Origin: Gammaproteobacteria bacterium
GTDB lineage: Bacteria > Pseudomonadota > Gammaproteobacteria > CAJXQU01
Assembly: GCA_965238175.1 (NCBI GenBank)
Contig: CBDEGZ010000003.1
Location: 2,400,001 to 2,464,000, forward strand
Direction of reading: 5' to 3'
Length of the DNA stretch: 64,000 nt
The stretch's first letter is position 1, and each line of letters starts with the position of its first letter. Position numbers and translations under genes: made by a program. The notes below the pieces were generated by a model, which saw nothing but the letters and a program-made list of their open reading frames with translations, was not told where the DNA came from and did not search any database. Below are positions 37,702 through 64,000 of the stretch, in pieces.

Positions 37702-37773
37702 TCGAAAGAGTAATAATGGAATTTAACAAGAGAATCTTCCTAGAACGTATCAATAATTTCAAAGAGGGATGTG

Positions 37774-39066: not shown

Positions 39067-39068
39067 TT

Positions 39069-41117: not shown

Positions 41118-41135
41118 AAATTAAAAAAATAATAA

Positions 41136-43834: not shown

Positions 43835-43840
43835 ATACAA

Positions 43841-45553: not shown

Positions 45554-46288
45554 ATGACAATGACAATAGCAATCAACTGCGATATGGGTGAGAGTTTTGG
45601 TCTCTACAAGATGGGAGATGATGAAGGCATCATGCCCTATGTGACAGAGGCCAATATTGCTTGTGGTTTTCATGGTTCAGACCCTAACCATATGAAAAAA
45701 ACGGTTGCGTTAGCAAAACAATCCGGTGTAAAAATCGGTGCTCACTTTTCCTTGCCTGATCTGGCTGGCTTCGGTAGGAGAGAAATGAAAATCGATCATG
45801 AGGAAATGGCCAATATTATTCTTTATCAGGTAGGTGCTTTAAAAGGGTTTCTTGATATGGCCGGCATACCACTAAATCATCTCAAACCCCATGGCGCACT
45901 CTATGGCATGGCCGCTCGTGAAGAACATATCGCGGAGGCAATTGCCGATATCGCCGTGCATTATCAAGTGCCCGTTTTCGGTCTTGCAGGTACCTTGCAC
46001 GAAGAGGTCTATACCGCACGAGGGATTGAGTTTCGAGCCGAGTTTTTTGCAGATCTGGATTATGACAATCAAGGCAACTTGGTGATCACACGCGAACATA
46101 AAGCCGTTCCACCAGCACAAGCAGCACAACGCTCAGTTCGTGCGGTTACCGACAATTTGGTTCAAAGCCTGGACGGTAGCGATGTCGCGGTGCGCGCCGA
46201 AACTATCTGTGTACATTCTGATACTCCCGAATCTGTGGAAATCGCACGCGCAGTACATACCGCTTTAACGCCGTATCTGTTCGCGTAA
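45554..46288 (+). CDS. pxpA: LamB/YcsF (5-oxoprolinase subunit A-like)
   Basis: NCDMGESFG, ANIACGFH..DP, KPHGALY, TICVHSD. Confidence 0.88.
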   Translation: MTMTIAINCDMGESFGLYKMGDDEGIMPYVTEANIACGFHGSDPNHMKKTVALAKQSGVKIGAHFSLPDLAGFGRREMKIDHEEMANIILYQVGALKGFLDMAGIPLNHLKPHGALYGMAAREEHIAEAIADIAVHYQVPVFGLAGTLHEEVYTARGIEFRAEFFADLDYDNQGNLVITREHKAVPPAQAAQRSVRAVTDNLVQSLDGSDVAVRAETICVHSDTPESVEIARAVHTALTPYLFA

Positions 46289-46322
46289 CTTTATAATTGG
46301 TATTAAAACAAAGGAGAACCCT

Positions 46323-46565: not shown

Positions 46566-46583
46566 AAAAGGATAATTTAAAAG

Positions 46584-47972
46584 ATGCCAATCAATAAGCT
46601 ACTTATTGCAAATCGAGGGGAAATTGCCATACGCATCATCCGGGCCGCTCGTGACTTAGGAATCAAGACTATTCAGGTATACAGTTCAGCGGATGCAGAT
46701 TCCCTGGCTGTTCAATTGGCTGATGAAGCGATTGAGATCGGTCCACCTCAAGCGGCAAAATCTTATCTTGATAGTGCCGCTATACTTGCTGCTGCTAAAA
46801 AAATGAGGGCTGATGCTGTTCACCCTGGGTACGGTTTTCTTGCTGAGAATGCAGATTTCGCGGATGCAATTGAAGCTGCTGGCATGCACTTTGTTGGACC
46901 CAATGGCAAAACTATTCGACTGATGGGGGATAAGGCTGCGGCACGTCAAGCAGCAAAAGATTCAGGCGTACCGACGGTACCAGGAAGCAATGGCTTGTTT
47001 GAAAATCTTGATGAAGCACTTTCGCTTGCTGTCTCCATTGGTTTTCCTGTCATGGTCAAAGCAACCGCAGGCGGTGGTGGGCGTGGCATCAGGATCATAA
47101 ACGATGAATCTGAATTTATGGAATTAGCACCACAGGCAGCCGCTGAGGCAAAAGCAGCATTCGGCGATGGTGGTCTTTATCTTGAAAAACTAATCACAGG
47201 CGCTCGCCATATCGAAGTACAAATCCTCGGTGATGGCAATCGAGTGATTCACTGTTTTGAACGTGAATGCTCAATACAACGACGCAGACAAAAAATCTGG
47301 GAAGAAGCACCCGCAGCCCCCTTATCGCAAGCAACGCGTGACAAGCTTTACGCCTCCTCGGTAGCACTGGCAGAATCGGTTGATTATCGAGGTGTCGGTA
47401 CGGTCGAATATCTTTACGATGATAATACTAATGAATTTTACTTCATTGAAATGAACACCCGAATTCAGGTTGAACACCCTGTGACCGAATATATTACTGG
47501 AATCGATCTGGTGGCAGAAATGATCAAAATCTGTGGTGGCGAACCACTGTCACTACAACAATCTGATCTTGCGATTAGAGGGCATGCTATTGAAGTACGT
47601 ATTAATGCTGAAGATCCATCGAATAACTTCATGCCTTTTCCAGGCCTTGTGGGCGAATTCCGTGCCCCTGATGGCCCCGGTATTCGCTTCGATCATATGC
47701 TTTTTAGCGGTTATCAAATACCGCCATTTTATGATTCTTTGTTGGGTAAACTTGTTGTTTGGGCCAACACGCGCGAACAGGCTATTCTCAGACTCAAACG
47801 CGCCTTTACTGAACTGCATATCAGCGGCCTGAAGACGACACTGCCTCTGTTTCTGGCATTAGCTGAGGATCAAGATGTGCTCTCAGGACAAGTACACACG
47901 AACTGGCTGGAACCCTGGTTAGAAGAACATCAGAGCAAACTGGTCAATCTGGAAGGAAAAAACATATTATGA
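46584..47972 (+). CDS. Biotin carboxylase (AccC-like)
   Basis: ANRGEIA, HPGYGFLAEN, GGGGRG, RECSIQRR, EMNTRIQVEHPVTE. Confidence 0.94.
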   Translation: MPINKLLIANRGEIAIRIIRAARDLGIKTIQVYSSADADSLAVQLADEAIEIGPPQAAKSYLDSAAILAAAKKMRADAVHPGYGFLAENADFADAIEAAGMHFVGPNGKTIRLMGDKAAARQAAKDSGVPTVPGSNGLFENLDEALSLAVSIGFPVMVKATAGGGGRGIRIINDESEFMELAPQAAAEAKAAFGDGGLYLEKLITGARHIEVQILGDGNRVIHCFERECSIQRRRQKIWEEAPAAPLSQATRDKLYASSVALAESVDYRGVGTVEYLYDDNTNEFYFIEMNTRIQVEHPVTEYITGIDLVAEMIKICGGEPLSLQQSDLAIRGHAIEVRINAEDPSNNFMPFPGLVGEFRAPDGPGIRFDHMLFSGYQIPPFYDSLLGKLVVWANTREQAILRLKRAFTELHISGLKTTLPLFLALAEDQDVLSGQVHTNWLEPWLEEHQSKLVNLEGKNIL

Positions 47973-48844
47973 GTGCGAGATATTCTTTTGGTGGTGACGA
48001 ACATATTTTTGTTGAAGTTAGTGAAGAGATGGCACTGGAAGCTTTTTTTAAAGGCTTATCCATGACAAACGCCATTCGCGATGCTGCAATCACAGGTGTC
48101 ACTGAAATCTGTGCGGCGAACGCTTCATTTCAGGTCAAATTCGATCCTGATCTGATCCACCCCGATGAAATGATGGACACAATAAAACGTTTCGAGGAAG
48201 CTGCTGATCAGTCTGATGCCGTGTTAAACACCCGTATCATTGAGATCCCCGTTTATTATCAGGATCCCTGGACTCATGAAACACAAATGAGATTCAGAGA
48301 ACGCCACCAGACACCTGAATCTACCGATATAGAATTCGCCGCTGATGCCAATGGCTACAAAACAGTCGATGATTTTATCGAAGCACATTCAGGCTCGCCC
48401 TGGTTCGTATCAATGGTCGGTTTTGTTGCAGGCCTGCCATTTCTTTATCAAATGGTCGATAGGCCTCGCCAGATCCAGGTACCCAAATATTTGAGACCAC
48501 GTACCGATACACCGAAATTAACGATTGGCTATGGCGGTTGCTTCACTTGTATTTATTCCGTGCGTGGCGCTGGCGGTTATCAAATGTTCGGTATCACACC
48601 CATGCCAATTTATGATCCACAACAAAAGATAAGCTACCTGAAAGATTTTATGGTGTTCTTTAGACCTGGTGATATTGTCAAATGGAAACCTATCGATCGC
48701 AGCACGTACGAACAGATGGTTGTGGATGTCGAAGCAGGTAAATTCCAGCCTCTAATACGTGAAGTTGTATTTTCACTAAAAGACTACAACAAAGATATTG
48801 ATGGAACCAACACAAAACTTAAGGAGGCGCTCTATGCCGATTAA
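47969..48844 (+). CDS. Carboxyltransferase subunit, PxpB/allophanate hydrolase subunit 1-like
   Basis: IEIPVYY, MVGFVAGLP, PRTDTP, GAGGYQMFG, PGDIVK. Confidence 0.82.
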   Translation: MSARYSFGGDEHIFVEVSEEMALEAFFKGLSMTNAIRDAAITGVTEICAANASFQVKFDPDLIHPDEMMDTIKRFEEAADQSDAVLNTRIIEIPVYYQDPWTHETQMRFRERHQTPESTDIEFAADANGYKTVDDFIEAHSGSPWFVSMVGFVAGLPFLYQMVDRPRQIQVPKYLRPRTDTPKLTIGYGGCFTCIYSVRGAGGYQMFGITPMPIYDPQQKISYLKDFMVFFRPGDIVKWKPIDRSTYEQMVVDVEAGKFQPLIREVVFSLKDYNKDIDGTNTKLKEALYAD

Positions 48845-49805
48845 TGTCAACAGTCCAGGACTCGCAACCACAATCCAGGATCTGGGGCGTCCCGGTTATT
48901 ATCATTTGGGGATACCAATGGGGGGGGCTATGGACAGACTGGCAATGCGCGCGGCTAACTTACTGGTAGGGAATAGCGAAGACGCTGCCGGTCTGGAAGT
49001 CGTGTTTATGGGGCCAGAACTGGAATTCACTGAGGAAGCCATCGTCGCTGTCACTGGTGCCGAATTGCCACCTAAGCTTGATGGTGAATCTCTTGAGACA
49101 TGGACTTCATTCAAGATCAAAGCGGGACAAGTTCTGTCTTTTGATTATTTACGCGAAGGTGCACGGGCCTATATTGCAATCTCTGGCGGCATTGCAACAC
49201 CAAAAGCGCTCGGTAACCGCTCAACCTATACTATTGGTGCACTGGGAGGTATTGATGGCCGAGCTATTCAGAAGGATGACACCTTACCCCTTGGTTCACA
49301 AAAAACTGCTATTGAGGGGCAAAACCTGCCTCAACATTTACAGCGCAAACCTGGTAACCCGGCGGAACTACGGGTGCTGCCTGGCCTTTATTGGCATCGC
49401 CTGACTGAAGAAGCACAAGAAACGTTTTTTGATGATAGCTGGAAAGTGGCATCTGAAGCTGATCGCATGGGTTATCGCTTTCAAGGTGGCCAGGCACTGA
49501 GCTTTGTTGAGCGCGAAGCACCGTTTGGAGCAGGCTCTGATCCTTCCAATATCACAGATGCTGGTTATCCTTACGGTTCTATACAAGTGCCCAGTGGTGC
49601 TGAACCAATTGTCTTGCATCGTGATGCGGTCTCGGGTGGCGGCTACTTTATGCTAGGCACTATTATTTCAGCAGACATGGATCTGATCGGTCAACTACAA
49701 CCAAATACCGAAACACGCTTCATCAAGGTCAACATGCAAACGGCAATGGAAGCCAGACGTGAACGCAAGGCAACACTGGGTGAGATCCGCATGGCACTTG
49801 CCTGA
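48834..49805 (+). CDS. Carboxyltransferase subunit, PxpC/allophanate hydrolase subunit 2-like
   Basis: TTIQDLGRPG...GGAMD, ANLLVGN, GARAY, DRMGYR, GSIQVP, GGGY; ATG at 48834 after aaggagg RBS. Confidence 0.85.
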   Translation: MPINVNSPGLATTIQDLGRPGYYHLGIPMGGAMDRLAMRAANLLVGNSEDAAGLEVVFMGPELEFTEEAIVAVTGAELPPKLDGESLETWTSFKIKAGQVLSFDYLREGARAYIAISGGIATPKALGNRSTYTIGALGGIDGRAIQKDDTLPLGSQKTAIEGQNLPQHLQRKPGNPAELRVLPGLYWHRLTEEAQETFFDDSWKVASEADRMGYRFQGGQALSFVEREAPFGAGSDPSNITDAGYPYGSIQVPSGAEPIVLHRDAVSGGGYFMLGTIISADMDLIGQLQPNTETRFIKVNMQTAMEARRERKATLGEIRMALA

Positions 49806-52134: not shown

Positions 52135-53403
52135 CTAGAAGAACAAAATTATACCAACACTGAAGACATCGTTATCGATATCACCACCAGCCTGGTTTTC
52201 TGCTTCAAGATGTGAATATTCACCTGTTAGCATTACACCTGATGCAAGCGTATGATAAATCCCGCCAGTGATCTTGGTTTTCTCTTCAAGAACGGCAGTA
52301 CCTGCATCTACAGCGTTATCATCAAGATTGTTTACACCATAGTTGATACCATATTTGGTGTTACCTGCTGCATACGTTGCCTGCAGCAAATAACCATCAC
52401 TATCGCGTTCCTCACCTGTTGGATCAACGGCATCAATAAAGTAACCAGTATGACCTAAGCCCTGAGCATGATGGTATGTTCCTGTCAATGTCAGGTTAGA
52501 GAAACTATACTGACCTGTGAGATCAATACCATACGCCGTGTAATCGGATGTTAATGCACCAGCGCTAGCCTCTACTGATTGGGCGAGAAAAGTTGAGGAA
52601 ATAAACCCTCCGTTGAAATTAAATCTTAACCTGCCGTGTGCGCCTGGCAGCTCAGAACCAGTCTCAGCACCTGCGAATGTACCGCTGTTAAAGGAAAAAC
52701 TTGATAGGTTTAAAGGTTGGAAAAGACCAATTTGAGCGACCCACTGATCACTGGTTGGTATTGTCCAGGTAAGCTGGGTAATACGATCCAGGAAGATGTA
52801 ACCCGTACCAGCCGCACCTAACTGAGTGTTCACTGGGTTATTGACCAAAAAGTTACCACCCACTGAAGAAACAGACATATCCTGGAAAGTTGAGTCATAA
52901 GCAAAAACGCCCCAAGCACGACCGACCAATATCTGTCCTATGCTTTCGTTACCCAAAGTCATCCAGATACGAAAACCTGATCCATCATCACCGACATTGA
53001 ATGCTTCATTAGTATCTAACCCACGATCAAAAGTAGAGAAGACACCTATGTCATAACCACCAGCAGTTGTTGACAGACCGAATTCCAGTATCGTTGGCAA
53101 ATAACCATTAGTGATTGCGTTTGGATCCTGATCACCACCACACAAAAATGCCCCTACAACCAAGGCACCATTATCATCGCAAGTATTATATATATAACTT
53201 GCATTGAAATTCCCATGTACTGAGAACGTCCAGCCTTCATTTTCAATTTCAAAAGCATTGGCTGATAAAGAACCGATCGCACATAAACTTGCTACCGATA
53301 ACGTACTGATTTTTTTCCGCATTATTTTATTAATCATTTTTCCACTCCGTAATTTTGTTTTGTTTAATGTTTGTCTTTCCAGACTATTCGTTATTACTGT
53401 CAT
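52135..53403 (-). CDS. Outer-membrane porin (alternative start 53337)
   Basis: Signal peptide ending ANA-FE, amphipathic beta strands, C-terminal Phe (SVGIILFF). Confidence 0.85.
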   Translation of the reverse strand: MTVITNSLERQTLNKTKLRSGKMINKIMRKKISTLSVASLCAIGSLSANAFEIENEGWTFSVHGNFNASYIYNTCDDNGALVVGAFLCGGDQDPNAITNGYLPTILEFGLSTTAGGYDIGVFSTFDRGLDTNEAFNVGDDGSGFRIWMTLGNESIGQILVGRAWGVFAYDSTFQDMSVSSVGGNFLVNNPVNTQLGAAGTGYIFLDRITQLTWTIPTSDQWVAQIGLFQPLNLSSFSFNSGTFAGAETGSELPGAHGRLRFNFNGGFISSTFLAQSVEASAGALTSDYTAYGIDLTGQYSFSNLTLTGTYHHAQGLGHTGYFIDAVDPTGEERDSDGYLLQATYAAGNTKYGINYGVNNLDDNAVDAGTAVLEEKTKITGGIYHTLASGVMLTGEYSHLEAENQAGGDIDNDVFSVGIILFF

Positions 53404-53673
53404 TTATTTCCCCCATAATTTCACTTAATCTAAACAGCTGCTATTTTTCTATCCAGTGCATCTTTAAGAATGTTCTATCTCTGAGACGCACCTCACCCCT
53501 GACACCTACATATCGCCATTTTTTCGAAGCCATTCTTCGAGAGTTAATTTTTTGAATTTCATCTACTGATTAATAGACGCTTATTCAATTTACTCTGGGT
53601 AAAATAACCTAGTAGCTTCGCCTCCTGGATTTTCAAAAATCCTTGTCTTACCGTATTTATACAAAAAATAAAG

Positions 53674-54081
53674 CTATCCGTACTTCTCCATTAAACCAGC
53701 GATGCGTTTTAAAAATATGGCATGCTCGCAGGCCTCTTCTGACGAATAAGAACCATCGAGTATTTCGACAGGTTCTCCTCGTACGCCGGAGGAAATACCT
53801 ATTCTGTAATCCTCAAACATGCGTACACAAACGCTCACGTATTTACCGGCCATTGGATGTCGGCGTAATTTATCAAGTAACGTTCTCAGATCCTGGCTAT
53901 GTTCTATTGCTGGCTGACCATTCTTAGGTGGTGTACCCACAGGGTTAGCTTTGTGTTCAGCAATCAGGCGACGACGTGATTCATCCTCAAACAACAGCGG
54001 CATTACATAGCGACGCGTCATGTGATCGTCAGCCCCTTCATAACCTTCGTTTGCTTGCACACCTTTTTGTTTATCTAACAT
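53674..54081 (-). CDS. N,N-dimethylformamidase small subunit-like protein
   Basis: LIAEHKANPVG...HSQDL..LLDKLRR.P..GKY...EHAIFLKRI; near the large subunit. Confidence 0.75.
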   Translation of the reverse strand: MLDKQKGVQANEGYEGADDHMTRRYVMPLLFEDESRRRLIAEHKANPVGTPPKNGQPAIEHSQDLRTLLDKLRRHPMAGKYVSVCVRMFEDYRIGISSGVRGEPVEILDGSYSSEEACEHAIFLKRIAGLMEKYG

Positions 54082-54129
54082 CTTGTATTCCTCTTAATTT
54101 CAAGTAATAAGTGCTATGACCTTTATTCA

Positions 54130-54498
54130 TCAATGGTTTCGACAAGGTGTAAATTCACCGCGCTCATCTTTAATGCGCTGCGCTTCCTCTTGCGCCAGTT
54201 CTGGTGAGTCGTAAACTTTGTCCTCAAACAATATGATAGGTTTTGCACGATCTGCATTGAGTTGTCCCACACACCACTGTTTATCCGGTTTAATACAAAC
54301 GACGACATAAGCACCTGAGATCGCTCCATACTTATTGTTGTTCAGCTTGAACAGGCATTCAGCTACATCGATAACCTTTTCCTCATCAAGCGACTCCATC
54401 ACCAATTTTTCTAAATCGTTAGGCGGAATCGAACTTGCACCAAGTTCAGATTTGCCCGGTGGTGGATCCAACATGTCGGGGTGTTGATTTATTGTCAT
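54130..54498 (-). CDS. Hypothetical protein, partial paralog of the DMFase small subunit
   Basis: YVVVCIKPDKQWCVGQLNADRAKPIILFEDKVYDSPELAQ aligns with the C-terminal half of 53674-54081. Confidence 0.55.
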   Translation of the reverse strand: MTINQHPDMLDPPPGKSELGASSIPPNDLEKLVMESLDEEKVIDVAECLFKLNNNKYGAISGAYVVVCIKPDKQWCVGQLNADRAKPIILFEDKVYDSPELAQEEAQRIKDERGEFTPCRNH

Positions 54499-54524
54499 AT
54501 CACTATCCTCATGTGGTTTTACGT

Positions 54525-56888
54525 TTAAGGTAAATCACCTTCTTTCAAGAAGCCTTTGATCGCATTTTCAGTCAGCCTGGAGACGTTGTTGTTGTAGTTG
54601 TTGTGCGAAAGGCTGCCGCACCATGACAATGATCCTGGTGCGAAGGTTGCTCCACCATTTGGTGTTTTGTAATAGACCATGTCTGCACGCACCATTGGAT
54701 TTTCCGTACCGCTGCCGTGATAACCGCGGACAGAGAAATGAATTTCTTCGTTAACCTGCAGCATTAGATTGGTGTGCCCTTCTGAATGCGCTAATAGATA
54801 TGCGTCGTGCGGTGTACCGAATTCCAGGTCGTAGCGATCAAGTTCCAGACCGGCGGCACCGCCACCAACTAAGCCGAAGTCACCAATTTTTTCGCCATTA
54901 CCAATACCTTCCATAATCCAGGCAGTTTCTGGCAACTCACTGTCCTTATCACGCACATAATAAGAAGACACATCGAAACCATAAGCTGTGAAAGTCAGGC
55001 CACAAAGCTTACTTGGAATACGTCCTCGTGCACGCCACATGCCACCGTACTTACCATCAAAGGCGTTATTGTATTCACCAGGATTAGCTGTCCAGGCACG
55101 GGTACCTGCTTCGCCTTTACGTACTTCAATAATGTTGGAATTATCTGGATGATATTGACTGATCCAATAGAAACCATTCGCACCCAGATAGATCCAGCGT
55201 CCACCTTCCTGCTGATATCTCTCATAAGCTGAGAACATGTTTTCTGAGGTATATTCAGGGTGACTACCCGTCAATACCGTTCGATATTTATTCAGTAAAG
55301 CAACGCCTTCACGATCCAAATCTTCATCAGTATGAACGTCATAATCGAAGCCTTTTTCATCCAGCCAGTCAATTAAGTGCAGGTCACCATTAAGTTGCCA
55401 AAGCGATGGAGACAACCAGTGACGATACTTGGGACGCATGTTCAGAATTGGACGCAAACGTGATGAATAGCTCACACCACTCCCATCGGAATGTAATGAA
55501 TAGGTAGATAAACCATATTCCCTATGCTCATTCAGATACAAATCTGAAGCAGTCATAACCGGAACCTTACCAGCGAGCAATTCAGCAACAACACAGTTAG
55601 TCGCCAGGTTATCGTTGGAATACGCCATATAGGAATTAGTCGGTAAGATAAACGCTAGTTTTGAGGTAGTTGTACCGCGTGGGGGACGTATAACAAAGGG
55701 AATATAATCTTCTGTTTCTGGCGAATCCACACCACCGATCCTCAGGCGTGCAGCATATACACCACTTTTCAGATTGTCAGGAACTGTCAGTTCAAAGTCC
55801 ACATCCCAGCGAGCATCATCGATATCGTCATCGTGGAAATGAATAGCACCGTATTCTTCTGGTTTATGATGATAAACAATCTCGTCACCAGTCCAATTAA
55901 AACCGGTCATACCTCGACATGGCATATTTACAATGTAACCGTGGAGTCGAGAAGTCGACAGATCAAGAATATGTGTACTTGCAATATTCTTAGTGATGTT
56001 GGCATGAAAATCCCAAGCTCCGATCACATCATTGCGCACATCAGGATGACAATATTGAAAACCGCGTGCCAACGCTTCGATTTCTGCTTTAGAGAGGGCA
56101 CGACGAGATAATCTAGGTCGATCGATCTTACCGTTATAAGTAGCACCGCGAGTTTGTTCTGGCAACTCAATCGCTTCAGGAGCTTCCTTAAAGTGTGCTC
56201 CAGAAATACTACGTCCTGATCGCTCAGTCCAGGTACTAGCAGCCATCAGAAATGGGGCATCATTTATTCCTGGCTTCATACTGTTAATCGATTCAACAGT
56301 TGCTGTAGTTTCTTCAGCAGGGTTCAGAATACCTTGTCCCAGACCACCATTGGTTGGAGTCACAACAGGCTCTTGATAAAGAGTGACTTTGCCTGTTCGT
56401 GCATCGTAGCTAACTGCCGCAAGATACCAGACCTTTCGTAATAATTTCTTATCACTGGAAATTTTCATTACCTGCCCAGAACCATTACCAATTCTTGCTT
56501 CCAGGCAACCATTTTTATCGATAAATAATCCGTAACCACTTTCCGAATGATCAACCCATTTGGTTAGAAGCCCCTGACGTCCTTTCTCAGGTGTGGTTGG
56601 AAAGATATAGCACTGCAATGTAAAACTTTCTACATTCAGGCGTTCATCCTGTGGAACGATAATATAAGAACCACCATGAATTTTTTGATTACGTCCTGGA
56701 TAACTTTTATTGCAGGATGCACTAATTTCCTCTTCTTTATATCCAGGACCTTCCGGGTTGGTATCACCATGGATCAAACGTACGAGTTGGGTATCGTAGA
56801 CCTCGTCTTCCTCGGAATTAATATAGAACTTAATATTATCCCCGGGACATATAGAATATTTATCGCTATAACCAGTAATTCTTAACAT
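54525..56888 (-). CDS. N,N-dimethylformamidase large subunit-like amidohydrolase
   Basis: ITGYSDK, LVRLIHGDTNPEGPG, LamG-like domain, HFHDDD, YMAYSN, GLSTY, GSHPEY, LGANGFYW, GLELDR. Confidence 0.88.
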   Translation of the reverse strand: MLRITGYSDKYSICPGDNIKFYINSEEDEVYDTQLVRLIHGDTNPEGPGYKEEEISASCNKSYPGRNQKIHGGSYIIVPQDERLNVESFTLQCYIFPTTPEKGRQGLLTKWVDHSESGYGLFIDKNGCLEARIGNGSGQVMKISSDKKLLRKVWYLAAVSYDARTGKVTLYQEPVVTPTNGGLGQGILNPAEETTATVESINSMKPGINDAPFLMAASTWTERSGRSISGAHFKEAPEAIELPEQTRGATYNGKIDRPRLSRRALSKAEIEALARGFQYCHPDVRNDVIGAWDFHANITKNIASTHILDLSTSRLHGYIVNMPCRGMTGFNWTGDEIVYHHKPEEYGAIHFHDDDIDDARWDVDFELTVPDNLKSGVYAARLRIGGVDSPETEDYIPFVIRPPRGTTTSKLAFILPTNSYMAYSNDNLATNCVVAELLAGKVPVMTASDLYLNEHREYGLSTYSLHSDGSGVSYSSRLRPILNMRPKYRHWLSPSLWQLNGDLHLIDWLDEKGFDYDVHTDEDLDREGVALLNKYRTVLTGSHPEYTSENMFSAYERYQQEGGRWIYLGANGFYWISQYHPDNSNIIEVRKGEAGTRAWTANPGEYNNAFDGKYGGMWRARGRIPSKLCGLTFTAYGFDVSSYYVRDKDSELPETAWIMEGIGNGEKIGDFGLVGGGAAGLELDRYDLEFGTPHDAYLLAHSEGHTNLMLQVNEEIHFSVRGYHGSGTENPMVRADMVYYKTPNGGATFAPGSLSWCGSLSHNNYNNNVSRLTENAIKGFLKEGDLP

Positions 56889-56936
56889 GATATTTCCTCA
56901 AACTTTTATTAAATAGAAATGACAGCTTCTCAATTT

Positions 56937-58880
56937 TTAATTGTAAGCAACTCTTTCAATTTCCTTTTCCGGCGTGGTCGACATCCGCATTTTATTAGCT
57001 AGAAACCAGATCATAAGTACACCGAGTGCCCACCAAATAATCTGCCATGCCCAGAGAGATGGCATTCGGAAAACCCAAGCGTCATAACCTGCATTTGGTT
57101 CTCCGAATAAAACATTGCCTAATAGTGATCCCGGACCAATAGCAAAAAACATCCACACCATCACCATCACACCTGCCACAGGTTTCGACCAACGATCACA
57201 AACCTCTGAAGCTGTGTATTCATGGAAAAAATCGTGAAAGGAATCTCGCCACTTACGATCATCGATATCCTCGCGTGAAGAAGCAGAAACAATCAGACAG
57301 ATAACAAGGTTGAAAAACATACCCCAGGCAGCGGAATGAATAGTCCATGGCCATACACCCCATGGCAGCGAACCACCTGTGAGTTTCTGACCTAACGGCT
57401 CAGTCAAAACAACTGCAATCAAACCGACGATTAAACCTGCTGTTGCCGCACTCCGGGTGATAAATGAGAACCAGGTTACTGCTAACAGTGAAGGCCACAG
57501 TTGGAATGCACAGGCAATGGCTAAGCCGCCTAACAGCATGGTTGCTTCCATCGAAAAAGAAGCCAGTAGCATTGCCGCAAGGAACACCAAACCTGTGCAC
57601 AGACGTGCAACCAACATCTGTTTCTTATGGTCAGCTTCGGGCTCCAGAAAACGAAGATAAATATCACGAGCCAAGATGCTGCCCGTGGTTGACATAAAGG
57701 CAGAACCGGTAGCTTGTAATGCTGCAATAGCACACACAGCCAGGAAACCAATTAGCCAGGGCAAGCTTCCACCGATCAATTTGATATAGTGCGCAACCAA
57801 TTCATTTTGTTGATGCTCTGATAAGACAGGCAATAAATTAGCAACTGCAAAACCAGCTTCGTTAACATCGGCGTTGGCACCTAACAAATGAGCACTGACA
57901 CCCTGAAAGGTTGCAAAAACAAACATCAGAATGCCAACAACACATGCAGCACCCCAAATCTGATGAATCGCAAAACCCCGTGGTGAACGGCTGGCAAAAC
58001 CTAACATGGAAAATGAAGGTGACGCCTGAATACCCATAACTGACATCATGAAGGTCAGGATCATAATAGAGGTCCAGGGACCTCCCGTTGGTGTTTCAAC
58101 ACCTAATCCGCTTGTCCATTGAATAACCCCTGGCACTGCAAAATAACCGGGGAAATTACCACCACCTAGACCTTTAGTTTCAGCCGAATGACTGGCTAGG
58201 TTTTGCGCGATATTAGCCAAACCAGCATTCAATGAGTCGAAGCCGCCTACAAGATCTAAAGCGTACGTTCCCAACACCACCATGCCCAGTATAAAGAGAG
58301 CACATTGCACAACCGCAACTTTAGCAACAGCTTGCATACCGCCTATAACACAGTAGAGCAACACAAAACCTGAGAGACCCCACATAGCAACTGTGCGAGA
58401 CACTTCTCCATTAGTTAGCTCGCTGATCAGGAAGCCGGAAGCACCAAAGAGAATGGCAACAAAAGGAATACCAAATAGCAGGGCAATGAAGACAGAGATA
58501 AGACGTAATGTATTACCCTTAAAATAATCTGCCAACATCTCACCAGATGTCACATAGCCGAAGCGTTGACCTAACATCCACTGCCGTTTAAGTAAGACAA
58601 CACCACTCAAAGCAACAGCCACTGCGTAAAAAGACGCGTTGGCGAACTGAAAACCATCTCGAAAAACTAGTCCAGGATGTCCTATAAAAGTCCATCCTGC
58701 AAAAGAAACCCCAGTAGCGGCAAGCGCAAAAACCCATGGCGACAAACTTCTTCCAGCGAGAAAATAATCGCTAGCAGTGTCCACACGTCGGCACGCACGC
58801 ACGCCCCAGAAGAAGCAATACGCCCAGTAAAGCATCAAAAAAACTAGCAGCCAGGCGGTATTATCAGTCATGTTATTCAA
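56937..58880 (-). CDS. Sodium:solute symporter family transporter
   Basis: DYFLAGRSL, SFAGWTF.GHPG, GGM.AVA, many TM segments. Confidence 0.9.
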   Translation of the reverse strand: MNNMTDNTAWLLVFLMLYWAYCFFWGVRACRRVDTASDYFLAGRSLSPWVFALAATGVSFAGWTFIGHPGLVFRDGFQFANASFYAVAVALSGVVLLKRQWMLGQRFGYVTSGEMLADYFKGNTLRLISVFIALLFGIPFVAILFGASGFLISELTNGEVSRTVAMWGLSGFVLLYCVIGGMQAVAKVAVVQCALFILGMVVLGTYALDLVGGFDSLNAGLANIAQNLASHSAETKGLGGGNFPGYFAVPGVIQWTSGLGVETPTGGPWTSIMILTFMMSVMGIQASPSFSMLGFASRSPRGFAIHQIWGAACVVGILMFVFATFQGVSAHLLGANADVNEAGFAVANLLPVLSEHQQNELVAHYIKLIGGSLPWLIGFLAVCAIAALQATGSAFMSTTGSILARDIYLRFLEPEADHKKQMLVARLCTGLVFLAAMLLASFSMEATMLLGGLAIACAFQLWPSLLAVTWFSFITRSAATAGLIVGLIAVVLTEPLGQKLTGGSLPWGVWPWTIHSAAWGMFFNLVICLIVSASSREDIDDRKWRDSFHDFFHEYTASEVCDRWSKPVAGVMVMVWMFFAIGPGSLLGNVLFGEPNAGYDAWVFRMPSLWAWQIIWWALGVLMIWFLANKMRMSTTPEKEIERVAYN

Positions 58881-58904
58881 TACTCCTTAATACATTTGTC
58901 AGGG

Positions 58905-60926
58905 TTACGTATTAGCCCGGTCACTCTCAGAACTACCGCCATTCCCATCTTTGTAATCCCCAAGAATATTTGTAATATTGCCAATTTCGTTTGGCGACAT
59001 ACCAATTTCATTGAGCAGGTTGTCAACGAATGGCATTTGTGCGCGATAACGCAGAGCTGAATTTACAATGTTGTCAGATAGACTACTTTGAGATCCTCCC
59101 AAGTCACTATTCACAGGACCTAAGCCTCCACCATCACCGTTTACACTTGCGCTGCTACCATTGAAACCAGGCATACCATTAACTTCATAAATCTTGATAC
59201 CGTCGATGTTTTCCATCGGTCTAACCGCTTCGCGGATAATCGAATCAAGATTCTTAGCCAACTGCATACGCAGATCACTTTGACGACTTTTATCGCTTCG
59301 AGCATTTTCAGCCTCATTCAGCATCAACCTGCCGGCAGCATCCACTTCGTAACGCAGCTTGCTCGCCAAAGAACTATGCTTCTCTGCCTGTTCACGTTCC
59401 TGAGATGCTTCTTTCTCGGCTTTGGCAAGAGTTGTAATTTGAATTGCTTCGCTTTCACCTTCTTGTGTGGCATGGATCAGTTTCAGTTTCTTATGTCGCT
59501 CAGCAACCTCGACTTCCCTTGCTGATGAAACCTGCTCCTCGGCAACGACTGTTTGTGCACGCATCTGCTCTTTAACTTCGTTTGCTTTAAGCACCTGCAC
59601 AGATTTTTCTGTTACGGCCAACTCACGATCATGTTCCTCAATCTCAAGTTGTTTACGTTTTTCAATTTCACGTGTTTTGGTTTTTTCTTCGTTTTCAATA
59701 CGCGTGGTTTCAATAGCACGCTGCTGCTCGATTTTTGATTTCTTAACGCTTTCTTCCGCTTTCAATTGAGCCTGCTCAGCTTCACGGTAACGTTCAGACT
59801 CCTCCTTAACCACATCAGATTTTTGCTGAGCGCGACGCTTAGCAACTTCTTCTTCCTGTGCTAATCGAGCAAACTCATTATCCTTCTCAATTTCCAGCGA
59901 TCTGATTTCACTTTCGAGATTTTTCTGTTTAATTTCAATCTCAGTTTGCCTTTCAATTTCGTTGCGCAGTTTTTTTCGTTCTTCTATCTGCAACGTCAAC
60001 TTGTGTTCACGTAACGAGCGCTCAACTTCAATCGTGTCCTGTTGAGATATACGTGCTTTTTCAACTTCCTCAACGGCATTGATTTTGGCTTCTTCTGCAA
60101 CACGTTCCTGTTCCGCACGCTCAATTGCTATTTCTGTTTGCTCTTTGGCACGTTGCATGGCAATTGCACGTTCTTGCATAAGACGTGCAAACTCTCTTTC
60201 CTTATCAATTTCCAGCGTGCGCTGTTCAGTTTCGAGATTTTTAGATCGAATTTTAATCGCTGTATCCTGCTCGATATCATTACGTTTTTTCTTACGGGAT
60301 TCGATTTGCTCAGTCAGTTGAGTTAGACCTTCAGCATCGAATACATTGGAAGGATTGAAGACTTCCAGACCGGCCTGATCTAATCCAGTCAGGGAAACAG
60401 CTTCTAACTCAAGCCCCGTTTCGCTGAGTGAATCTTTAACCAATGCCTTAACAGCCTTGATATATTCGCCACGCTTTTCCTGTATTTCTTCCATGGTCAT
60501 TTGTGCAGCGACAACACCTAACGCATCAATGAAACGACCCTGAACTAACTCACGCAAGCTCTCTGGCTCCAATGTCCGCTTACCCAGAGAACCCGCTGCT
60601 ACAGATACAGCTTCTTTTGTGGGAGTGACGCGAACATAAAATTCGGCCACAATTTCCACCCGCATACGGTTCTTTGTGATAAAGGACTTATCTCCACCAC
60701 GTCGTACCTCAATACGCAAAGTCCTCATACCAACTGTTGTGATGTTATGAATGATGGGTAATACAAATGCACCGCCACTCAGAACAATTTTTTCACCTCC
60801 AAGACCGGTTCTGACAAACGAAACTTCTTTGGACGAACGGCGATAAAGCCAATGTAATAGATAAACCGCGATAGCAATGGTAAGTGCTACCAGAATGATT
60901 ACTGCAATAATGTCTGCACCAGTCAT
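58905..60926 (-). CDS. Flotillin (SPFH/band-7, YqiK-like)
   Basis: N-terminal TM, FVRTGLGG..V...GG.FVLPI.H, SPFH domain, long E/A-rich coiled coil, C-terminal PMENIDGIKI...ALRYRAQ.P. Confidence 0.92.
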   Translation of the reverse strand: MTGADIIAVIILVALTIAIAVYLLHWLYRRSSKEVSFVRTGLGGEKIVLSGGAFVLPIIHNITTVGMRTLRIEVRRGGDKSFITKNRMRVEIVAEFYVRVTPTKEAVSVAAGSLGKRTLEPESLRELVQGRFIDALGVVAAQMTMEEIQEKRGEYIKAVKALVKDSLSETGLELEAVSLTGLDQAGLEVFNPSNVFDAEGLTQLTEQIESRKKKRNDIEQDTAIKIRSKNLETEQRTLEIDKEREFARLMQERAIAMQRAKEQTEIAIERAEQERVAEEAKINAVEEVEKARISQQDTIEVERSLREHKLTLQIEERKKLRNEIERQTEIEIKQKNLESEIRSLEIEKDNEFARLAQEEEVAKRRAQQKSDVVKEESERYREAEQAQLKAEESVKKSKIEQQRAIETTRIENEEKTKTREIEKRKQLEIEEHDRELAVTEKSVQVLKANEVKEQMRAQTVVAEEQVSSAREVEVAERHKKLKLIHATQEGESEAIQITTLAKAEKEASQEREQAEKHSSLASKLRYEVDAAGRLMLNEAENARSDKSRQSDLRMQLAKNLDSIIREAVRPMENIDGIKIYEVNGMPGFNGSSASVNGDGGGLGPVNSDLGGSQSSLSDNIVNSALRYRAQMPFVDNLLNEIGMSPNEIGNITNILGDYKDGNGGSSESDRANT

Positions 60927-60965
60927 AATTTCTTACTCCTCAATAATATAGTTCTGATTATTCTG

Positions 60966-61679
60966 TTACTCAGCAACAGGATGATTTATGGCATTTGTGT
61001 CACTAATAGCAGCCTTATAAATTACGAAACCAAAGATGATCTTGTTTAAAAAATCAGCTAGGTTATAAATAATGTTGAGACTGTTAGTATCAACCCCTCC
61101 ACCCAGGTTATTGATAAAGTATCCGAGTGGATAAATTGCCCAACCGATAGTGACGATCAACCGTAATCCGTTAAATGCCATATGCGTTGCCTCGTTACCG
61201 CTTTCAGTATTAACGCGTCCAGCCTCACCCATATAGAGCTCACCGAGAATGTACAGCCAACCGACCACACCGATAATGAAACCCAAAGTTGCACTCATAT
61301 AACCTGCCGCACCCAGGAACTCACCAATAACCATAACCAATGATCCAATTAGCAAACGCCAAAATAAGGCTGGCGACACCTCTGTCACAGCCGCTAGCAC
61401 CACGTAAAACAGCACCACCTGCATTGAATGCGACAGTACCCAATCCACATAGCGCAAAATAATCGGCGCAGTACCCGTATCCACCCACATGCTTTTTGTG
61501 TAGTGATAAAAAATAGCGGAAACCAGCATCACAACACCGAGCAATGTCATCGTCGTGTGCCATCGGCTGTCCACCCTGTTTCTTTCCAGCAGGAAAAAAA
61601 TGGTGGCTCCGATCATGGCCATTGACAATAGCCAGAATGATCCACCTACTACGTCTGTTGGTAATAACATCTTGTTCAT
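60966..61679 (-). CDS. Proteorhodopsin-like microbial opsin, flotillin-associated type, D-S-L motif
   Basis: Seven hydrophobic segments; SFWLLSMAM..AT.FF..ER, RYVDW, GWAIYPLGY, NIIYNLADFLNKIIFG (Schiff-base Lys213 retained). Confidence 0.92.
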   Translation of the reverse strand: MNKMLLPTDVVGGSFWLLSMAMIGATIFFLLERNRVDSRWHTTMTLLGVVMLVSAIFYHYTKSMWVDTGTAPIILRYVDWVLSHSMQVVLFYVVLAAVTEVSPALFWRLLIGSLVMVIGEFLGAAGYMSATLGFIIGVVGWLYILGELYMGEAGRVNTESGNEATHMAFNGLRLIVTIGWAIYPLGYFINNLGGGVDTNSLNIIYNLADFLNKIIFGFVIYKAAISDTNAINHPVAE

Positions 61680-61750
61680 GAAAGCCCTCTACTATCTATT
61701 TTATTTATTAAAACAATGACATACATGCTGTCGTCATGCCTTTCACATCT

Positions 61751-63175
61751 TTATATCTGCGTCCGTATGTGCGGTGAACGTGCATACAAGGCCACCATCG
61801 GCAGAATCAGCAAACCAAACACGAATTGCTGCCCTTCAAAACTCAAACCGATACCCACAAGAAACGACGACAGTACTTGTAGAACAAGCACACCAATGAC
61901 CGTGAATCCATAGCCGCCAATACCACCAAGCAAGGAAGTCCCCCCTACAACAACCGCAGCCAGCGTCATGAACAAATACTGATCGCCCACACCGATAAAA
62001 GCACCGCCACTCCAACCCAGCAGCAAAGCGCCAGTCAAAGCTGAAATCAAACCGCTGATGCAATACACACCCACCCAGTAGGAGTGCTCTGAAATTGACA
62101 AGCGTGCAGCTGCTATTCGACCGCCACCCAAGGCGTAGAGATTTCTTCCCCAGCTTGAATTACGTAATCCAAAAATCAGAATGATGGCCGCCAGGATCCA
62201 GACAACAACAACCGGCGGAATACTAATACCGGCGATGCTGCCATTGACAGAGGCAATATTAGTTAACCAATTAGGAACAACACCGAACACGGTGCCACCG
62301 GAGCCAAGAGTAGTGATAGTTTGAACACCACCAGAGACAGCAAAACCAACCCCCAGTGTCAGGATGAGGGCCTGCCCCTGTAGTTTGAAACTCAATAGAC
62401 CGTTGACAAGCCCAATGGCGGCACCAACCAGCAGCACCGCAAGGATGGCAAGCCAGGGTGGGATGCCCATGTTGAGCAGGAACATCAAACCAACGTTCGA
62501 ACCACCGATAACAAAGGGAATGGATAGATCCAAGCCGCCCAGCAAAGCAACCAGTGTTTGCCCGATACAAGCCAGCCCCAAAAACGAAGCAAACAGCAGC
62601 ATTGATTTGAGATTCAACGTAGAAAGAAATCCCTCTACAACCAAGATACCAATAATAAAAAGCCCAATAAGAACGGTGAGACCCAAGTAAGCACTTTTAT
62701 TATTTTTAACGTTTTTATTAATAACAATGCCAATAACAATCAGCAGGACAAATACAAGTGCCGCGAGGATATTAGACGGTTGAAAGAAGTCCTCGACAGC
62801 AGCACCAACGGCAAAGAAAAGGGCGATCCCGAGCAAAATACCAATCAAGGCACCCTTGTATCTGGAGATAAGTAAACTAAAATAACTTTGTTCGTGCTCA
62901 TCCTCATCACCAGGTTTTACTTCTGCTGCTGCAACTGGCTCAACTGCTTCAGCCTCTGTTGTGCTGATGGCTATTGCATCATCACGATATATCCAGCGCA
63001 CTGAAAAGTGGTGCCAACCCCATAAAATGAGACCGAAGATTGCAACCGTGTAGAAAACAATGTGTTGTGTAGGCATATCATCAAGCGATCCCAGTACAGC
63101 ACTGACCCCAGCGACTAGCATTGCGATAACTAAACCCAGTCCCTTGTAAAACGAAAAGGCGCCTCTGGTGCTCAT
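61751..63175 (-). CDS. Sugar-type ABC transporter permease (RbsC-like) with N-terminal TM extension
   Basis: GQTLVALLGGLDLS, LILTLG, GRNLYALGG...AARLS, AAVVVGGTSLLGG.G. Confidence 0.85.
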   Translation of the reverse strand: MSTRGAFSFYKGLGLVIAMLVAGVSAVLGSLDDMPTQHIVFYTVAIFGLILWGWHHFSVRWIYRDDAIAISTTEAEAVEPVAAAEVKPGDEDEHEQSYFSLLISRYKGALIGILLGIALFFAVGAAVEDFFQPSNILAALVFVLLIVIGIVINKNVKNNKSAYLGLTVLIGLFIIGILVVEGFLSTLNLKSMLLFASFLGLACIGQTLVALLGGLDLSIPFVIGGSNVGLMFLLNMGIPPWLAILAVLLVGAAIGLVNGLLSFKLQGQALILTLGVGFAVSGGVQTITTLGSGGTVFGVVPNWLTNIASVNGSIAGISIPPVVVVWILAAIILIFGLRNSSWGRNLYALGGGRIAAARLSISEHSYWVGVYCISGLISALTGALLLGWSGGAFIGVGDQYLFMTLAAVVVGGTSLLGGIGGYGFTVIGVLVLQVLSSFLVGIGLSFEGQQFVFGLLILPMVALYARSPHIRTQI

Positions 63176-63211
63176 TTTATTTGCTCTTATCCTCCTCTAT
63201 ACGCATAATGA

Positions 63212-64000
63212 TTACCTTTCCCACGGACTAATTGCATCATCGCGTTTTTCGCCGACGATGTAGGTGTTGATTATGTGCATAACGTTTGGTGCTGTAATAA
63301 TCGACATACCGATAACCGCCAGGATTTTCCACAGCGGAACACCGATTGCGTAAAACAGACCGCTCCAGGCTAACGTGGCTAAAGCAGCGATATGCCAGTA
63401 ACGCCAAAAACTACGGAAACTGGATTCGCCCATCGCCATACGAAGGAAGATATGCAACATAAGAATAATGAAACCGCAGTAAGCCAACTCTGAAAATATC
63501 GCCATATCTGAGACGCCCACACCAACTCTGGCAGGGTCGGAATACTCGATGGCTGGTAGTTCCATAGGTGTCACACCCGTGCGAATAACAGGTTCGGCAT
63601 AACCCGCCCCTTGAGCGATCACGTCAGCAGGTATACCGCTACCGCTGGCGAAGAAATACACAACAATGACGGCTAGCACCGCTAAGGCACCAATGAACAG
63701 GTTATTAATATTGTGCAGTTTGGTTTGTACCAGCGGCGCCGTGATGGCGAACAACAGCGCGCCGACCAGAATAATGGCATATATTTCACCGGACAGTTGA
63801 CCAGCCAAATAGCCCTTGTCCGCATCTGAGAAGAACATGGCGCCAACAGCAATGACTGCAACCGCACCACCAAATAGAATCATTGCAACGCGTTTTGTGC
63901 GAATTGCCACCTGTGGCAGCATCACCAGAACGATCAAGGAAGTCAGTAGTACAGTACCCAACACCCCCATCAGCACATAGGTAGATTGAGCCACCGATTC
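63212..64000 (-). CDS. Polytopic membrane protein, 3' part (starts beyond window); likely C-terminal extension of another ABC permease
   Basis: Frame is open to the window end; multiple TM helices; co-oriented directly upstream of the permease. Confidence 0.55.
   Translation of the reverse strand, partial: ESVAQSTYVLMGVLGTVLLTSLIVLVMLPQVAIRTKRVAMILFGGAVAVIAVGAMFFSDADKGYLAGQLSGEIYAIILVGALLFAITAPLVQTKLHNINNLFIGALAVLAVIVVYFFASGSGIPADVIAQGAGYAEPVIRTGVTPMELPAIEYSDPARVGVGVSDMAIFSELAYCGFIILMLHIFLRMAMGESSFRSFWRYWHIAALATLAWSGLFYAIGVPLWKILAVIGMSIITAPNVMHIINTYIVGEKRDDAISPWER

Follow-up and report, generated by a model that had tools for sequence, protein, structure and literature searches.

A FArhodopsin–flotillin gene cluster linked to a dimethylformamidase-type enzyme in a gammaproteobacterium without a detected proteorhodopsin

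SPFH cages enclose membrane clients, as HflK/C does with FtsH, and FloT and FloA form microdomains in Bacillus subtilis. Periplasmic binding proteins are paired with hybrid histidine kinases in TorT/TorS and LuxP/LuxQ. The closest described relatives of the locus reported here are the clusters of flotillin-associated rhodopsins (FArhodopsins, FARs) of Pseudothioglobus, SAR11 and HIMB59. In the available text of the study describing them, the gene list already comprises flotillin, a membrane translocator, a sodium symporter and N,N-dimethylformamidase (DMFase), with no functional link proposed; every SAG with a FAR also had a proteorhodopsin, and FARs were associated with the lower photic zone (Haro-Moreno et al., 2023; PMC10308929). 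The FAR of Pseudothioglobus (PsFAR; PDB 9R21) is a pentamer that was shown by experiment to bind no retinal, its retinal pocket being obstructed at position 84, where an aromatic residue stands, and by E120 (or its substitute), and S54 stabilising the free K213 (Kovalev et al., 2025, preprint, available portion). As for the enzyme, DMFase is a two-subunit Fe(III) amidohydrolase that turns DMF into dimethylamine and formate, its large subunit bearing a 2-Tyr-1-Glu iron site and an essential His. The accessible part of the work on the DMFase of Paracoccus sp. DMF lists the catalytic residues and reports that the small subunit is required for activity (Arya et al., 2020; PMC7686228), and DMF was described as not known in nature (10.1101/2019.12.17.879908, accessible part).

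We analysed a stretch of 64,000 nt, hereafter the window, from Gammaproteobacteria bacterium (CAJXQU01; assembly GCA_965238175.1, contig CBDEGZ010000003.1, positions 2,400,001–2,464,000), the piece under study being positions 52,135–64,000 of the window. Published FAR hosts have streamlined genomes, unlike this gammaproteobacterium, whose genome is 3.35 Mb (97.7% complete) with about 45% G+C in the region. ORF and Pfam checks bore out the gene run described in an earlier note: nine minus-strand ORFs lie at the places given, with labels backed by Pfam. The separate "membrane protein" that had been placed at 63212–64000 turned out to belong to an ABC permease of 732 aa that runs off the window, being its C-terminal membrane extension. 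The features are as follows, in window positions:

63212..64000 (-), ABC permease 1, C-terminal part; the rest runs past the window to G000:C3:2465410
61751..63175 (-), ABC permease 2, 474 aa; BPD_transp_2
60966..61679 (-), FAR opsin, 237 aa; Bac_rhodopsin
58905..60926 (-), flotillin, 673 aa; Band_7 and Flot
56937..58880 (-), sodium:solute symporter family (SSS) transporter, 647 aa; SSF
54525..56888 (-), DMFase-like large subunit, 787 aa; DMFA2_C
54130..54498 (-), sm1 (small subunit paralog 1), 122 aa; distantly paralogous to the DMFase small subunit
53674..54081 (-), sm2 (small subunit paralog 2), 135 aa; homologous to the small subunit of the Paracoccus DMFase
52135..53403 (-), probable outer-membrane beta-barrel, 422 aa as called; true start probably later
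45554..46288 (+), LamB/YcsF (PxpA-like) lactam-hydrolase subunit; convergent with the FAR operon
46584..47972 (+), biotin carboxylase
47969..48844 (+), CT_C_D carboxyltransferase-domain protein (PxpB/KipI-like)
48798..49805 (+), CT_A_B carboxyltransferase-domain protein (PxpC/KipA-like)

The coordinates give gaps of 36, 71, 39, 24, 48, 26 and 48 bp between successive genes from permease 1 down to sm2, and 270 bp separate sm2 from the 422-aa ORF. Judging from its short gaps, the whole run may be co-transcribed. Upstream of the window edge, the run goes on with a double-NBD ABC ATPase and a Peripla_BP_4 binding protein. Beyond the genes noted earlier, the cluster contains a PxpA/biotin-carboxylase module, the other genes of the ABC importer, a gene for a TorT-like binding protein and two for regulation, encoding a hybrid kinase and a LuxR regulator.

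The window opsin matches PF01036 (Bac_rhodopsin) with 110.6 bits in Pfam. Its top PDB matches are 9r21 and 9r23, both "flotillin-associated rhodopsin", followed by proteorhodopsins; the match to PsFAR (9r21_A) has an E-value of 1.7e-130, and Pseudothioglobus FARs are 83–86% identical to it. The flotillin gene follows directly downstream on that strand, after a spacer of 39 bp. Such adjacency is found in the Pseudothioglobus, SAR11 and HIMB59 clusters, whose opsins likewise carry H84, E120 and K213 and which include a translocator, a sodium symporter and the DMFase genes; with the Pseudothioglobus cluster, the present one also has in common its LuxR regulator and its hybrid kinase. The window cluster is a member of the published FAR cluster (Haro-Moreno et al., 2023). 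In the alignment, the window FAR keeps S54, H84, E120, D209 and K213, and the proton-donor carboxylate is absent. Its motif is D79/S83/L90, a DSL variant common to 12 other loci, whereas published FARs bear DTT, DTL or DNI. These residues and the kinship with the retinal-free PsFAR, together with the lack of blh and of any other rhodopsin in the host, support the proposal that this opsin is not a normal light pump. Judging from the PsFAR match and the absence of blh, the window FAR is probably retinal-free.

The earlier note had seen no blh beside the opsin in the window, an observation that extends genome-wide: a profile search of the whole 97.7%-complete genome with PF15461 gave no match. 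The same model does match Njordibacter, a FAR genome with proteorhodopsin, and blh was likewise not found in three FAR-only genomes searched. The host has one PF01036 match in total, the FAR itself, and the constant companion of published FARs, a bona fide proteorhodopsin elsewhere in the genome, was not encountered there. More broadly, PF01036 matches nothing but the FAR in 17 of the 23 FAR genomes searched; these 17 include the host and five chromosome-level records, many of the rest being MAGs of unstated completeness, and a second rhodopsin occurs in the other six genomes (G006, G007, G418 and G420–G422). According to the published view, FAR is a light-related helper of the resident proteorhodopsin, which it might join in a heterocomplex within flotillin rafts to aid dim-light pumping, with the metabolic genes as bystanders. 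The proteorhodopsin of every FAR-bearing SAG, the association with the lower photic zone and the six genomes with a second rhodopsin are in its favour, and the available text of another study also treats the cluster as light-related (PMC12379486). Nevertheless, this view is contradicted by the 17 genomes without a second rhodopsin, and the missing blh, the retinal-free state of PsFAR and the presence of FAR in genomes labelled Poriferihabitaceae and Arenicellales also argue against it, so that we consider it highly improbable. The linkage of opsin and catabolic enzyme, stressed in the earlier note, is real, but the genes had already been listed together in the FAR cluster, as the accessible text of Haro-Moreno et al. 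(2023) attests. The present copy of the cluster sits in a bacterium without a light-driven pump.

The large subunit matches DMFA2_C (321 bits in Pfam) and aligns over its full length with 6lvb_A (E 3.5e-195), keeping equivalents of the Fe ligands Y399, Y440 and E521 as well as of H519 and N547, with the conserved motifs SYMAYSN, STY, GSHPEY and GANGFYW. Another of its PDB relatives, 8huy, is an N-acetyl-beta-phenylalanine acylase. The DMFase small subunit is matched by sm2 (6lvb_B, E 1.2e-5), and sm1 is a remote paralog (BLASTP E 5e-5; hhalign probability 90.5%, E 1.4e-6, 54 columns). The full-length large subunit, the catalytic residues and a homologous small subunit are thus shared with the Paracoccus sp. 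DMF enzyme (6LVB; PMC7686228, available part); unlike the latter, the window set has a second divergent small-subunit paralog and sits in an island with membrane proteins. The large subunit and the two small paralogs probably constitute a DMFase-type Fe(III) amidohydrolase of three subunits.

Gene neighbourhoods were surveyed from both ends of this association. Among 49 FAR-seeded genome loci, flotillin lies next door in 48, that is, in all 48 true FARs; L047, the locus without flotillin, was rejected as a FAR, being a true proteorhodopsin. The DMFase three-gene set was found downstream in all 43 informative loci, the remaining five stopping at a contig end. In each of the 43, the genes lie on one strand in the order FAR, flotillin, DMFase, with the large subunit 25–4358 bp past flotillin, and the second divergent small-subunit paralog is always present in FAR-linked sets. 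Similarly, 80 DMFase-seeded metagenome loci, which are the best 80 of 444 matches and biased to close relatives, have flotillin upstream in 71 cases, corresponding to 71/71 informative loci, the nine misses having at most 1961 bp of upstream sequence. These counts, from a survey in which none of the divergent freshwater FARs known from the 2023 study took part, demonstrate a genetic coupling of FAR, flotillin and DMFase. They are inflated by shared ancestry and by transfer of the island as one unit; most surveyed loci are close relatives from few lineages. The expected conservation of DMFase beside FAR–flotillin pairs was observed in every informative locus. That of SSS did not hold, as no SSS match lies within 10 kb in the nine Pseudothioglobus-type loci or in L024. 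The invariant DMFase linkage over about 130 related loci points to amide breakdown rather than light.

In a FastTree phylogeny, FAR-linked DMFases form one clade (SH-like support 99), suggesting that their association with FAR may have a single origin. The nearest DMFase outside this clade is 74% identical, has the same sm2-L-sm1 layout and belongs to G312, a genome without FAR and flotillin; the enzyme therefore has no need of either. FAR, flotillin and DMFase diverge in step, their pairwise-identity matrices correlating over 41 loci (r = 0.81–0.94). The FAR is 75–92% identical among Gammaproteobacteria, a Rhizobiaceae contig of 1.9 Mb and a Dehalococcoidia MAG contig (taxa as labelled). No DMFase, FAR, flotillin or permease 1 was found in the same-genus genomes G098 and G289. 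The island is accessory and has crossed between classes and, as labelled, also phyla. This mobility, the absence from same-genus genomes, the single clade and the stand-alone enzyme of G312 would all fit an independent function of FAR–flotillin and the DMFase operon, the two co-travelling on one mobile island of single origin. We hold such independence to be unlikely, given that the linkage outlasts rearrangements of several kinds (sm2 on either side of the large subunit, SSS on either side of DMFase, one to three extra genes inserted) and a divergence down to 54% pairwise identity for FAR and 52% for flotillin. Moreover, not one loss was seen in 43 + 71 informative loci (the 71 drawn from the best 80 of 444 matches), while SSS, ABC, Pxp and Hyu genes come and go.

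The transporters are of unusual build. At its full length of 732 aa, permease 1 joins BPD_transp_2 to a multi-helix membrane extension of about 400 aa, and permease 2 bears an N-terminal membrane extension of about 150 aa; these extra membrane domains are conserved, and the permeases and the ATPase contain extra regions absent from the models. With its Peripla_BP_4 binding protein, fused double-NBD ATPase and BPD_transp_2 permeases, the ABC system fits a CUT2-type (sugar-like) importer, and an amide/urea-type importer was rejected. Because of this CUT2-like appearance, and because no transporter of the run attains an NCBIfam equivalog cut-off, the amide uptake proposed earlier is a guess. The TorT-like binding protein (292 bits against a cut-off of 200 for the NCBIfam TorT model) adjoins the hybrid kinase and a NarL/ErdR-like regulator. 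This arrangement recalls TorT/TorS and LuxP/LuxQ, and the two-helix kinase indeed has TorS-like and LuxQ-like matches; unlike in those systems, the kinase matches the NahK/ErcS family best, the regulator belongs to the NarL/ErdR type, and an ABC ATPase and permease of its own come after the TorT-like protein. The Pxp module (PxpA, biotin carboxylase, PxpB/C-like) is present in the window, in SAR11 and in DNI-group loci; an alpha/beta hydrolase, a protein of metallo-beta-lactamase fold and HyuA/HyuB are encoded in other lineages. In the available text of Haro-Moreno et al. (2023), this module is restricted to Pelagibacterales and HIMB59; it adjoins the window cluster too. The ORF at 52135..53403, formerly called a porin, is lineage-specific and had no Pfam or NCBIfam match; its signal-peptide-like start and C-terminal ...ILFF make an outer-membrane barrel probable.

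The flotillin (PF01145, 56 bits; PF15975, 103 bits) has SPFH and Flot domains, a long coiled coil and, at its N-terminus, one membrane helix (hydrophobic residues 6–24), and its bulk is predicted to face the cytoplasm. The membrane helix is near-invariant over 45 sequences. As with HflK/C–FtsH and FloT/FloA, an SPFH-family scaffold gene stands beside that of a multimeric membrane protein (a pentamer in PsFAR). Unlike in those systems, the putative client is a cofactor-less rhodopsin fold, and the flotillin scores 29 bits against the cut-off of 700 of the NCBIfam FloT model. SPFH proteins organise or enclose membrane complexes, which speaks for a role of flotillin and FAR in folding, assembling or stabilising the large transporters of the island (the 732-aa and 474-aa permeases, SSS), with no specific tie to the amidohydrolase. 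The conserved extra membrane domains of the permeases agree with such a role, as does the flotillin helix, whose near-invariance suggests a specific partner within the membrane. However, the transporters differ by lineage, the big ABC system lying beyond the 10-kb flanks in most SAR11 loci and SSS missing in Pseudothioglobus-type loci, and the DMFase genes never vary in this way; we find this explanation quite improbable.

On balance, we consider it probable that the locus belongs to an accessory island of about 30 kb that moves horizontally and serves the uptake and hydrolysis of a natural amide, with FAR and flotillin as a light-independent platform. The invariant core would consist of five genes, namely those of the retinal-free FAR, flotillin, the DMFase large subunit and the two small paralogs. 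Around this core, importers would be exchanged by lineage (the CUT2-like ABC system with oversized permeases, the ABC system with a TorT-like binding protein, SSS), as would ATP-dependent ring-amide-opening modules (PxpA, PxpB/C-like proteins and biotin carboxylase in this host as in SAR11, HyuA/HyuB elsewhere). The FAR–flotillin platform in the membrane would serve the catabolic pathway, and transcription would probably be under the neighbouring hybrid kinase and LuxR-type regulator, answering a periplasmic ligand. The island would thus probably answer a chemical signal, not light.

At its broadest, and in a form that we regard as doubtful, this reading would make FAR and flotillin obligate light-independent parts of a membrane-attached amide-degrading machine, in which a cofactor-less FAR pentamer within a cytoplasm-facing flotillin assembly gates, senses or docks the flow of a natural imported amide, N-substituted or cyclic, towards the DMFase-type iron enzyme of three subunits. 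If true, a rhodopsin fold would do chemical instead of photic work in bacteria that are among the most abundant in the sea.

The minus-strand reading frames that an earlier note had described as an opsin-flotillin-transporter-amidase operon were confirmed in place, with the expected families, in the source genome (3.35 Mb in 3 contigs, 97.7% complete), of which the window covers G000:C3:2400001-2464000. The outermost "membrane protein" of the operon proved to be the C-terminal part of a 732-aa ABC permease once the source locus was read past the window end (L001), and the run starts beyond that end with a binding protein and an ATPase. Between permease 1 and small subunit 2, spacers measure 24-71 bp.

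Genes of the run, in order of reading, and its surroundings
1, minus strand, Peripla_BP_4 binding protein, beyond the window end
2, minus strand, double-NBD ABC ATPase, 38 bp after the binding protein, beyond the window end
3, minus strand, ABC permease 1, 732 aa, 164 bp after the ATPase
4, minus strand, ABC permease 2
5, minus strand, opsin (flotillin-associated rhodopsin, FAR)
6, 58905-60926, minus strand, flotillin, 673 aa
7, minus strand, sodium:solute symporter (SSS)
8, minus strand, large subunit of an N,N-dimethylformamidase-like enzyme (DMFase)
9, minus strand, DMFase small subunit 1 (sm1), 122 aa
10, minus strand, DMFase small subunit 2 (sm2), 135 aa
11, minus strand, probable outer-membrane protein, after a 270-bp gap
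Upstream, divergent, two-helix hybrid histidine kinase
Upstream, divergent, NarL/ErdR-like LuxR regulator
Upstream, divergent, TorT-like binding protein (NCBIfam TorT, 292 bits against a cut-off of 200)
Upstream, divergent, ABC ATPase and permease, after the TorT-like protein
Downstream, 45554-49805, convergent, Pxp module: PxpA (LamB/YcsF), biotin carboxylase and PxpB/PxpC-like proteins

Promoter and terminator scans gave counts at chance level, with no terminator in the intergenic gaps, and Rfam returned no RNA family in L001 or in window positions 40000-64000. A 351-aa lipoprotein (50743-51798; NlpB/DapX (BamC), 42 bits, cut-off 25) separates the probable porin from the Pxp module. Beyond this module (42707-45211 and 32949-41717) are found an alanine dehydrogenase, a class-III aminotransferase and fatty-acid beta-oxidation genes (acyl-CoA dehydrogenase, thiolase, a FadB-like gene and a truncated AMP-binding frame), which may process an omega-amino acid produced by ring opening; a FadB-like gene is also near FAR in the SAR11 locus L037. 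Permease 1 bears a C-terminal extension of about 400 aa with roughly nine helices (L001:3212-4440) and permease 2 an N-terminal membrane part of about 150 aa (62700-63175). FAR clusters retain both extensions (27-82% identity), neither of which has a match in Pfam, and a protein-atlas search with that of permease 1 gave no usable match. The C-terminal 250 aa or so of the ABC ATPase (L001:5575-6320, that is C3:2465575-2466320) form a charged low-complexity tail with four D..F..LM-like repeats, kept only in loci L002 (51%) and L024 (35%); other lineages have a separate frame of about 199 aa, without family match, after the ATPase.

The opsin matches the cryo-EM chain 9r21_A, the "flotillin-associated rhodopsin" of Pseudothioglobus (PsFAR), over residues 1-230 (E = 1.7e-130), retains S54, F57, D79, H84, E120, D209 and K213, and has the motif D79/S83/L90. 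In the available text of the preprint, PsFAR is without bound retinal, H84 and E120 jointly blocking the pocket (Kovalev 2025). Taken together, the match, the kept residues and the empty pocket of PsFAR identify the opsin, by sequence, as a FArhodopsin that is very probably free of chromophore. The usual pocket blockers are missing from the FARs of loci L064 (5158-5880; T54, Q84, G120, S137) and L026 (4982-5680; I84, Q120), which still adjoin flotillin and DMFase genes and might bind a cofactor.

The cluster itself is of an already known kind; what is new is the kind of host. The accessible text of Haro-Moreno 2023 describes a FAR cluster with flotillin, an "inner membrane translocator", a sodium symporter and N,N-dimethylformamidase, also lists PxpA and biotin-dependent carboxylases, adds LuxR and a hybrid kinase for Pseudothioglobus, reports co-transcription of FAR and flotillin in a SAR11 metatranscriptome, and proposes that FAR complements proteorhodopsin (PMC10308929). 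Similarly, a 2025 study, in the text available, counts the cluster among light-related genes (PMC12379486). However, FAR is the only PF01036 match in the source genome, as well as in 8 of 10 and 8 of 12 other FAR genomes (17/23 with the source); five of the 17 are chromosome-level and one, G314, is stated to be 95% complete. This contradicts the published statement that proteorhodopsin always accompanies FAR and removes the main support for a role as helper of proteorhodopsin. A second rhodopsin occurs in six genomes, namely Pseudothioglobus, Njordibacter, a Dehalococcoidia-labelled MAG and three alphaproteobacterial MAGs with a DNI motif. The retinal-synthesis gene blh, said earlier to be missing next to the opsin, was found nowhere in the source genome nor in the three FAR-only genomes tested; it was found beside the Njordibacter proteorhodopsin. 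The source genome has one SQS_PSY gene (phytoene or squalene synthase; G000:C3:3048426-3049307), about 585 kb from the opsin, that could bear on raft-type lipids.

The constant companion of the pair is the enzyme. Gene neighbourhoods were surveyed from FAR (49 loci of species-representative genomes) and from DMFase (the best 80 of 444 metagenome matches, at 76-88% identity), a sample that leaves out divergent freshwater FARs. Flotillin is present in 48 of the 49 FAR-seeded loci, the exception, L047, being a true proteorhodopsin (A54, V84, E90, G120). The DMFase large subunit is encoded in 43, each time downstream of flotillin and in the same orientation, and five others stop before its expected position. 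Among the best 80 of 444 DMFase-seeded loci, 71 contain flotillin, the nine others having at most 1961 bp of upstream sequence, and 58 contain FAR; in the 13 with flotillin but not FAR, the sequence stops within the flotillin gene or at its edge, and in one of them, L083, the best flotillin match covers only a 7% segment. Thus, across several bacterial classes and about 114 informative loci, the opsin-flotillin pair was never seen apart from a DMFase-type enzyme, as the earlier note had expected, and its proposal that the opsin is tied to an amidohydrolase rather than to light survives this comparison. Its similar expectation for SSS is not borne out everywhere: the symporter is present in 33/49 FAR-seeded loci and in 32 of the best 80 of 444 DMFase-seeded loci, and was not found within 10 kb in nine Pseudothioglobus-type loci and L024. 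The large ABC system and the Pxp module also vary in presence, and loci labelled Arenicellales, Chromatiales or Rhizobiaceae carry HyuA/HyuB, a 129-aa protein, an alpha/beta hydrolase and a metallo-beta-lactamase-fold protein. A core of five genes (FAR, flotillin, sm2, large subunit and sm1) is retained despite lineage-specific gene order.

Aligned over its full length with Paracoccus DMFase (6lvb_A, E = 3.5e-195), the large subunit has equivalents of Y399, Y440, E521, H519 and N547, which the available text on that enzyme gives as iron ligands or essential residues (PMC7686228). The 135-aa protein is a homolog of the DMFase small subunit and the 122-aa protein a remote paralog of it, with no PDB match as single sequence or profile. 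Two candidate FAR-specific features were discarded: sm1 as an adaptor, since the FAR-less operons of another genome, G312, carry it too, and a large-subunit insertion restricted to the FAR clade, the insert being common to G312. No signal peptide was seen in DMFase, which would reside in the cytoplasm. Flotillin begins with a single helix followed by RRSSK. Positively charged residues flank the cytoplasmic side of membrane helices (the positive-inside rule), so the bulk of flotillin would face that same side. Its helix, almost invariant in 45 sequences, is compatible with a specific intramembrane partner. By eye, the coiled coil has an internally duplicated stretch of about 105 residues (around 211-252 and 317-358), which may account for the 673-aa length.

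A DMFase-like gene was found in 9 of 401 sampled genomes of the same class. G314 has the entire cluster; G312 encodes two such enzymes, a DMFase of 74% identity and a paralog of 58%, both accompanied by sm2 and sm1, and no FAR, flotillin or permease 1 was found there. This type of DMFase can therefore exist without the pair. The two sm2-large-sm1 operons of G312, a 5.7-Mb genome, stand in tandem beside an IS200-like transposase (L052; G312:C39:216000-235999). In a tree of 47 large subunits, made by the quick method FastTree and rooted on two distant homologs with long branches, the 42 FAR-linked sequences group in a single clade (support 99), and G312 branches immediately outside it. Pairwise identities are correlated among FAR, flotillin and DMFase (r = 0.81-0.94, 41 loci), and, with the clade and the linkage, the association looks to have arisen once, been co-inherited and never been lost. 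DMFase, FAR, flotillin and permease 1 were not found in two genomes of the same genus, G098 (searched minus 8000 bases) and G289. For G098, part of the evidence of absence comes from permease 1, which no 8-kb stretch around the opsin would include. DNA comparison with these genomes did not delimit the island borders, even EF-G being only 79% identical. By record label, FARs with 75-92% identity to the one here occur in Pseudothioglobus, Arenicellales, Poriferihabitaceae, Chromatiales, Njordibacter, Rhizobiaceae (1.9-Mb contig) and Dehalococcoidia (11.9-kb MAG contig, possibly mis-binned). In Pseudothioglobus, a structural variant that deletes the entire cluster is reported by a 2025 study (PMC12379486).

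What is shown here is the identity of the genes, the kept residues, the linkage and the fact that FAR does not depend on the presence of a proteorhodopsin. Among the papers searched, none was found proposing a functional link between FAR and DMFase; the conservation of DMFase in the cluster may already be visible in Table S2 of PMC10308929. The accessory enzymes around the core are all amide or ring-amide hydrolases, and, from lineage to lineage, Pxp with biotin carboxylase alternates with HyuAB, an unrelated ring-opening system that is likewise ATP-dependent, a pattern that fits a pathway opening a ring amide and removing an N-formyl or N-acyl group. The hybrid kinase and LuxR-type regulators suggest chemical induction. 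With the predicted orientation of flotillin and the conservation of its helix, these features favor reading the cluster as an island that would be induced by a solute and carry out amide catabolism, in which FAR and flotillin would form a dedicated, light-independent membrane platform.

Pacific metaproteomes are reported to contain DmfA proteins from Alpha- and Gammaproteobacteria (PMC9477243); these presumably belong to the FAR-linked clade, and the enzyme may thus matter for marine nitrogen and one-carbon turnover. The never-broken linkage to DMFase and the missing proteorhodopsin change how FArhodopsin function can be tested. Most non-streamlined FAR carriers are without proteorhodopsin and, where tested, without blh. 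Together with the linkage, this argues for studying the system with amides and related solutes instead of light, and the two carriers whose complete genomes have strain-like names, Candidatus Pseudothioglobus sp. Uisw_041 and Candidatus Njordibacter sp. Uisw_039, may offer an experimental route.
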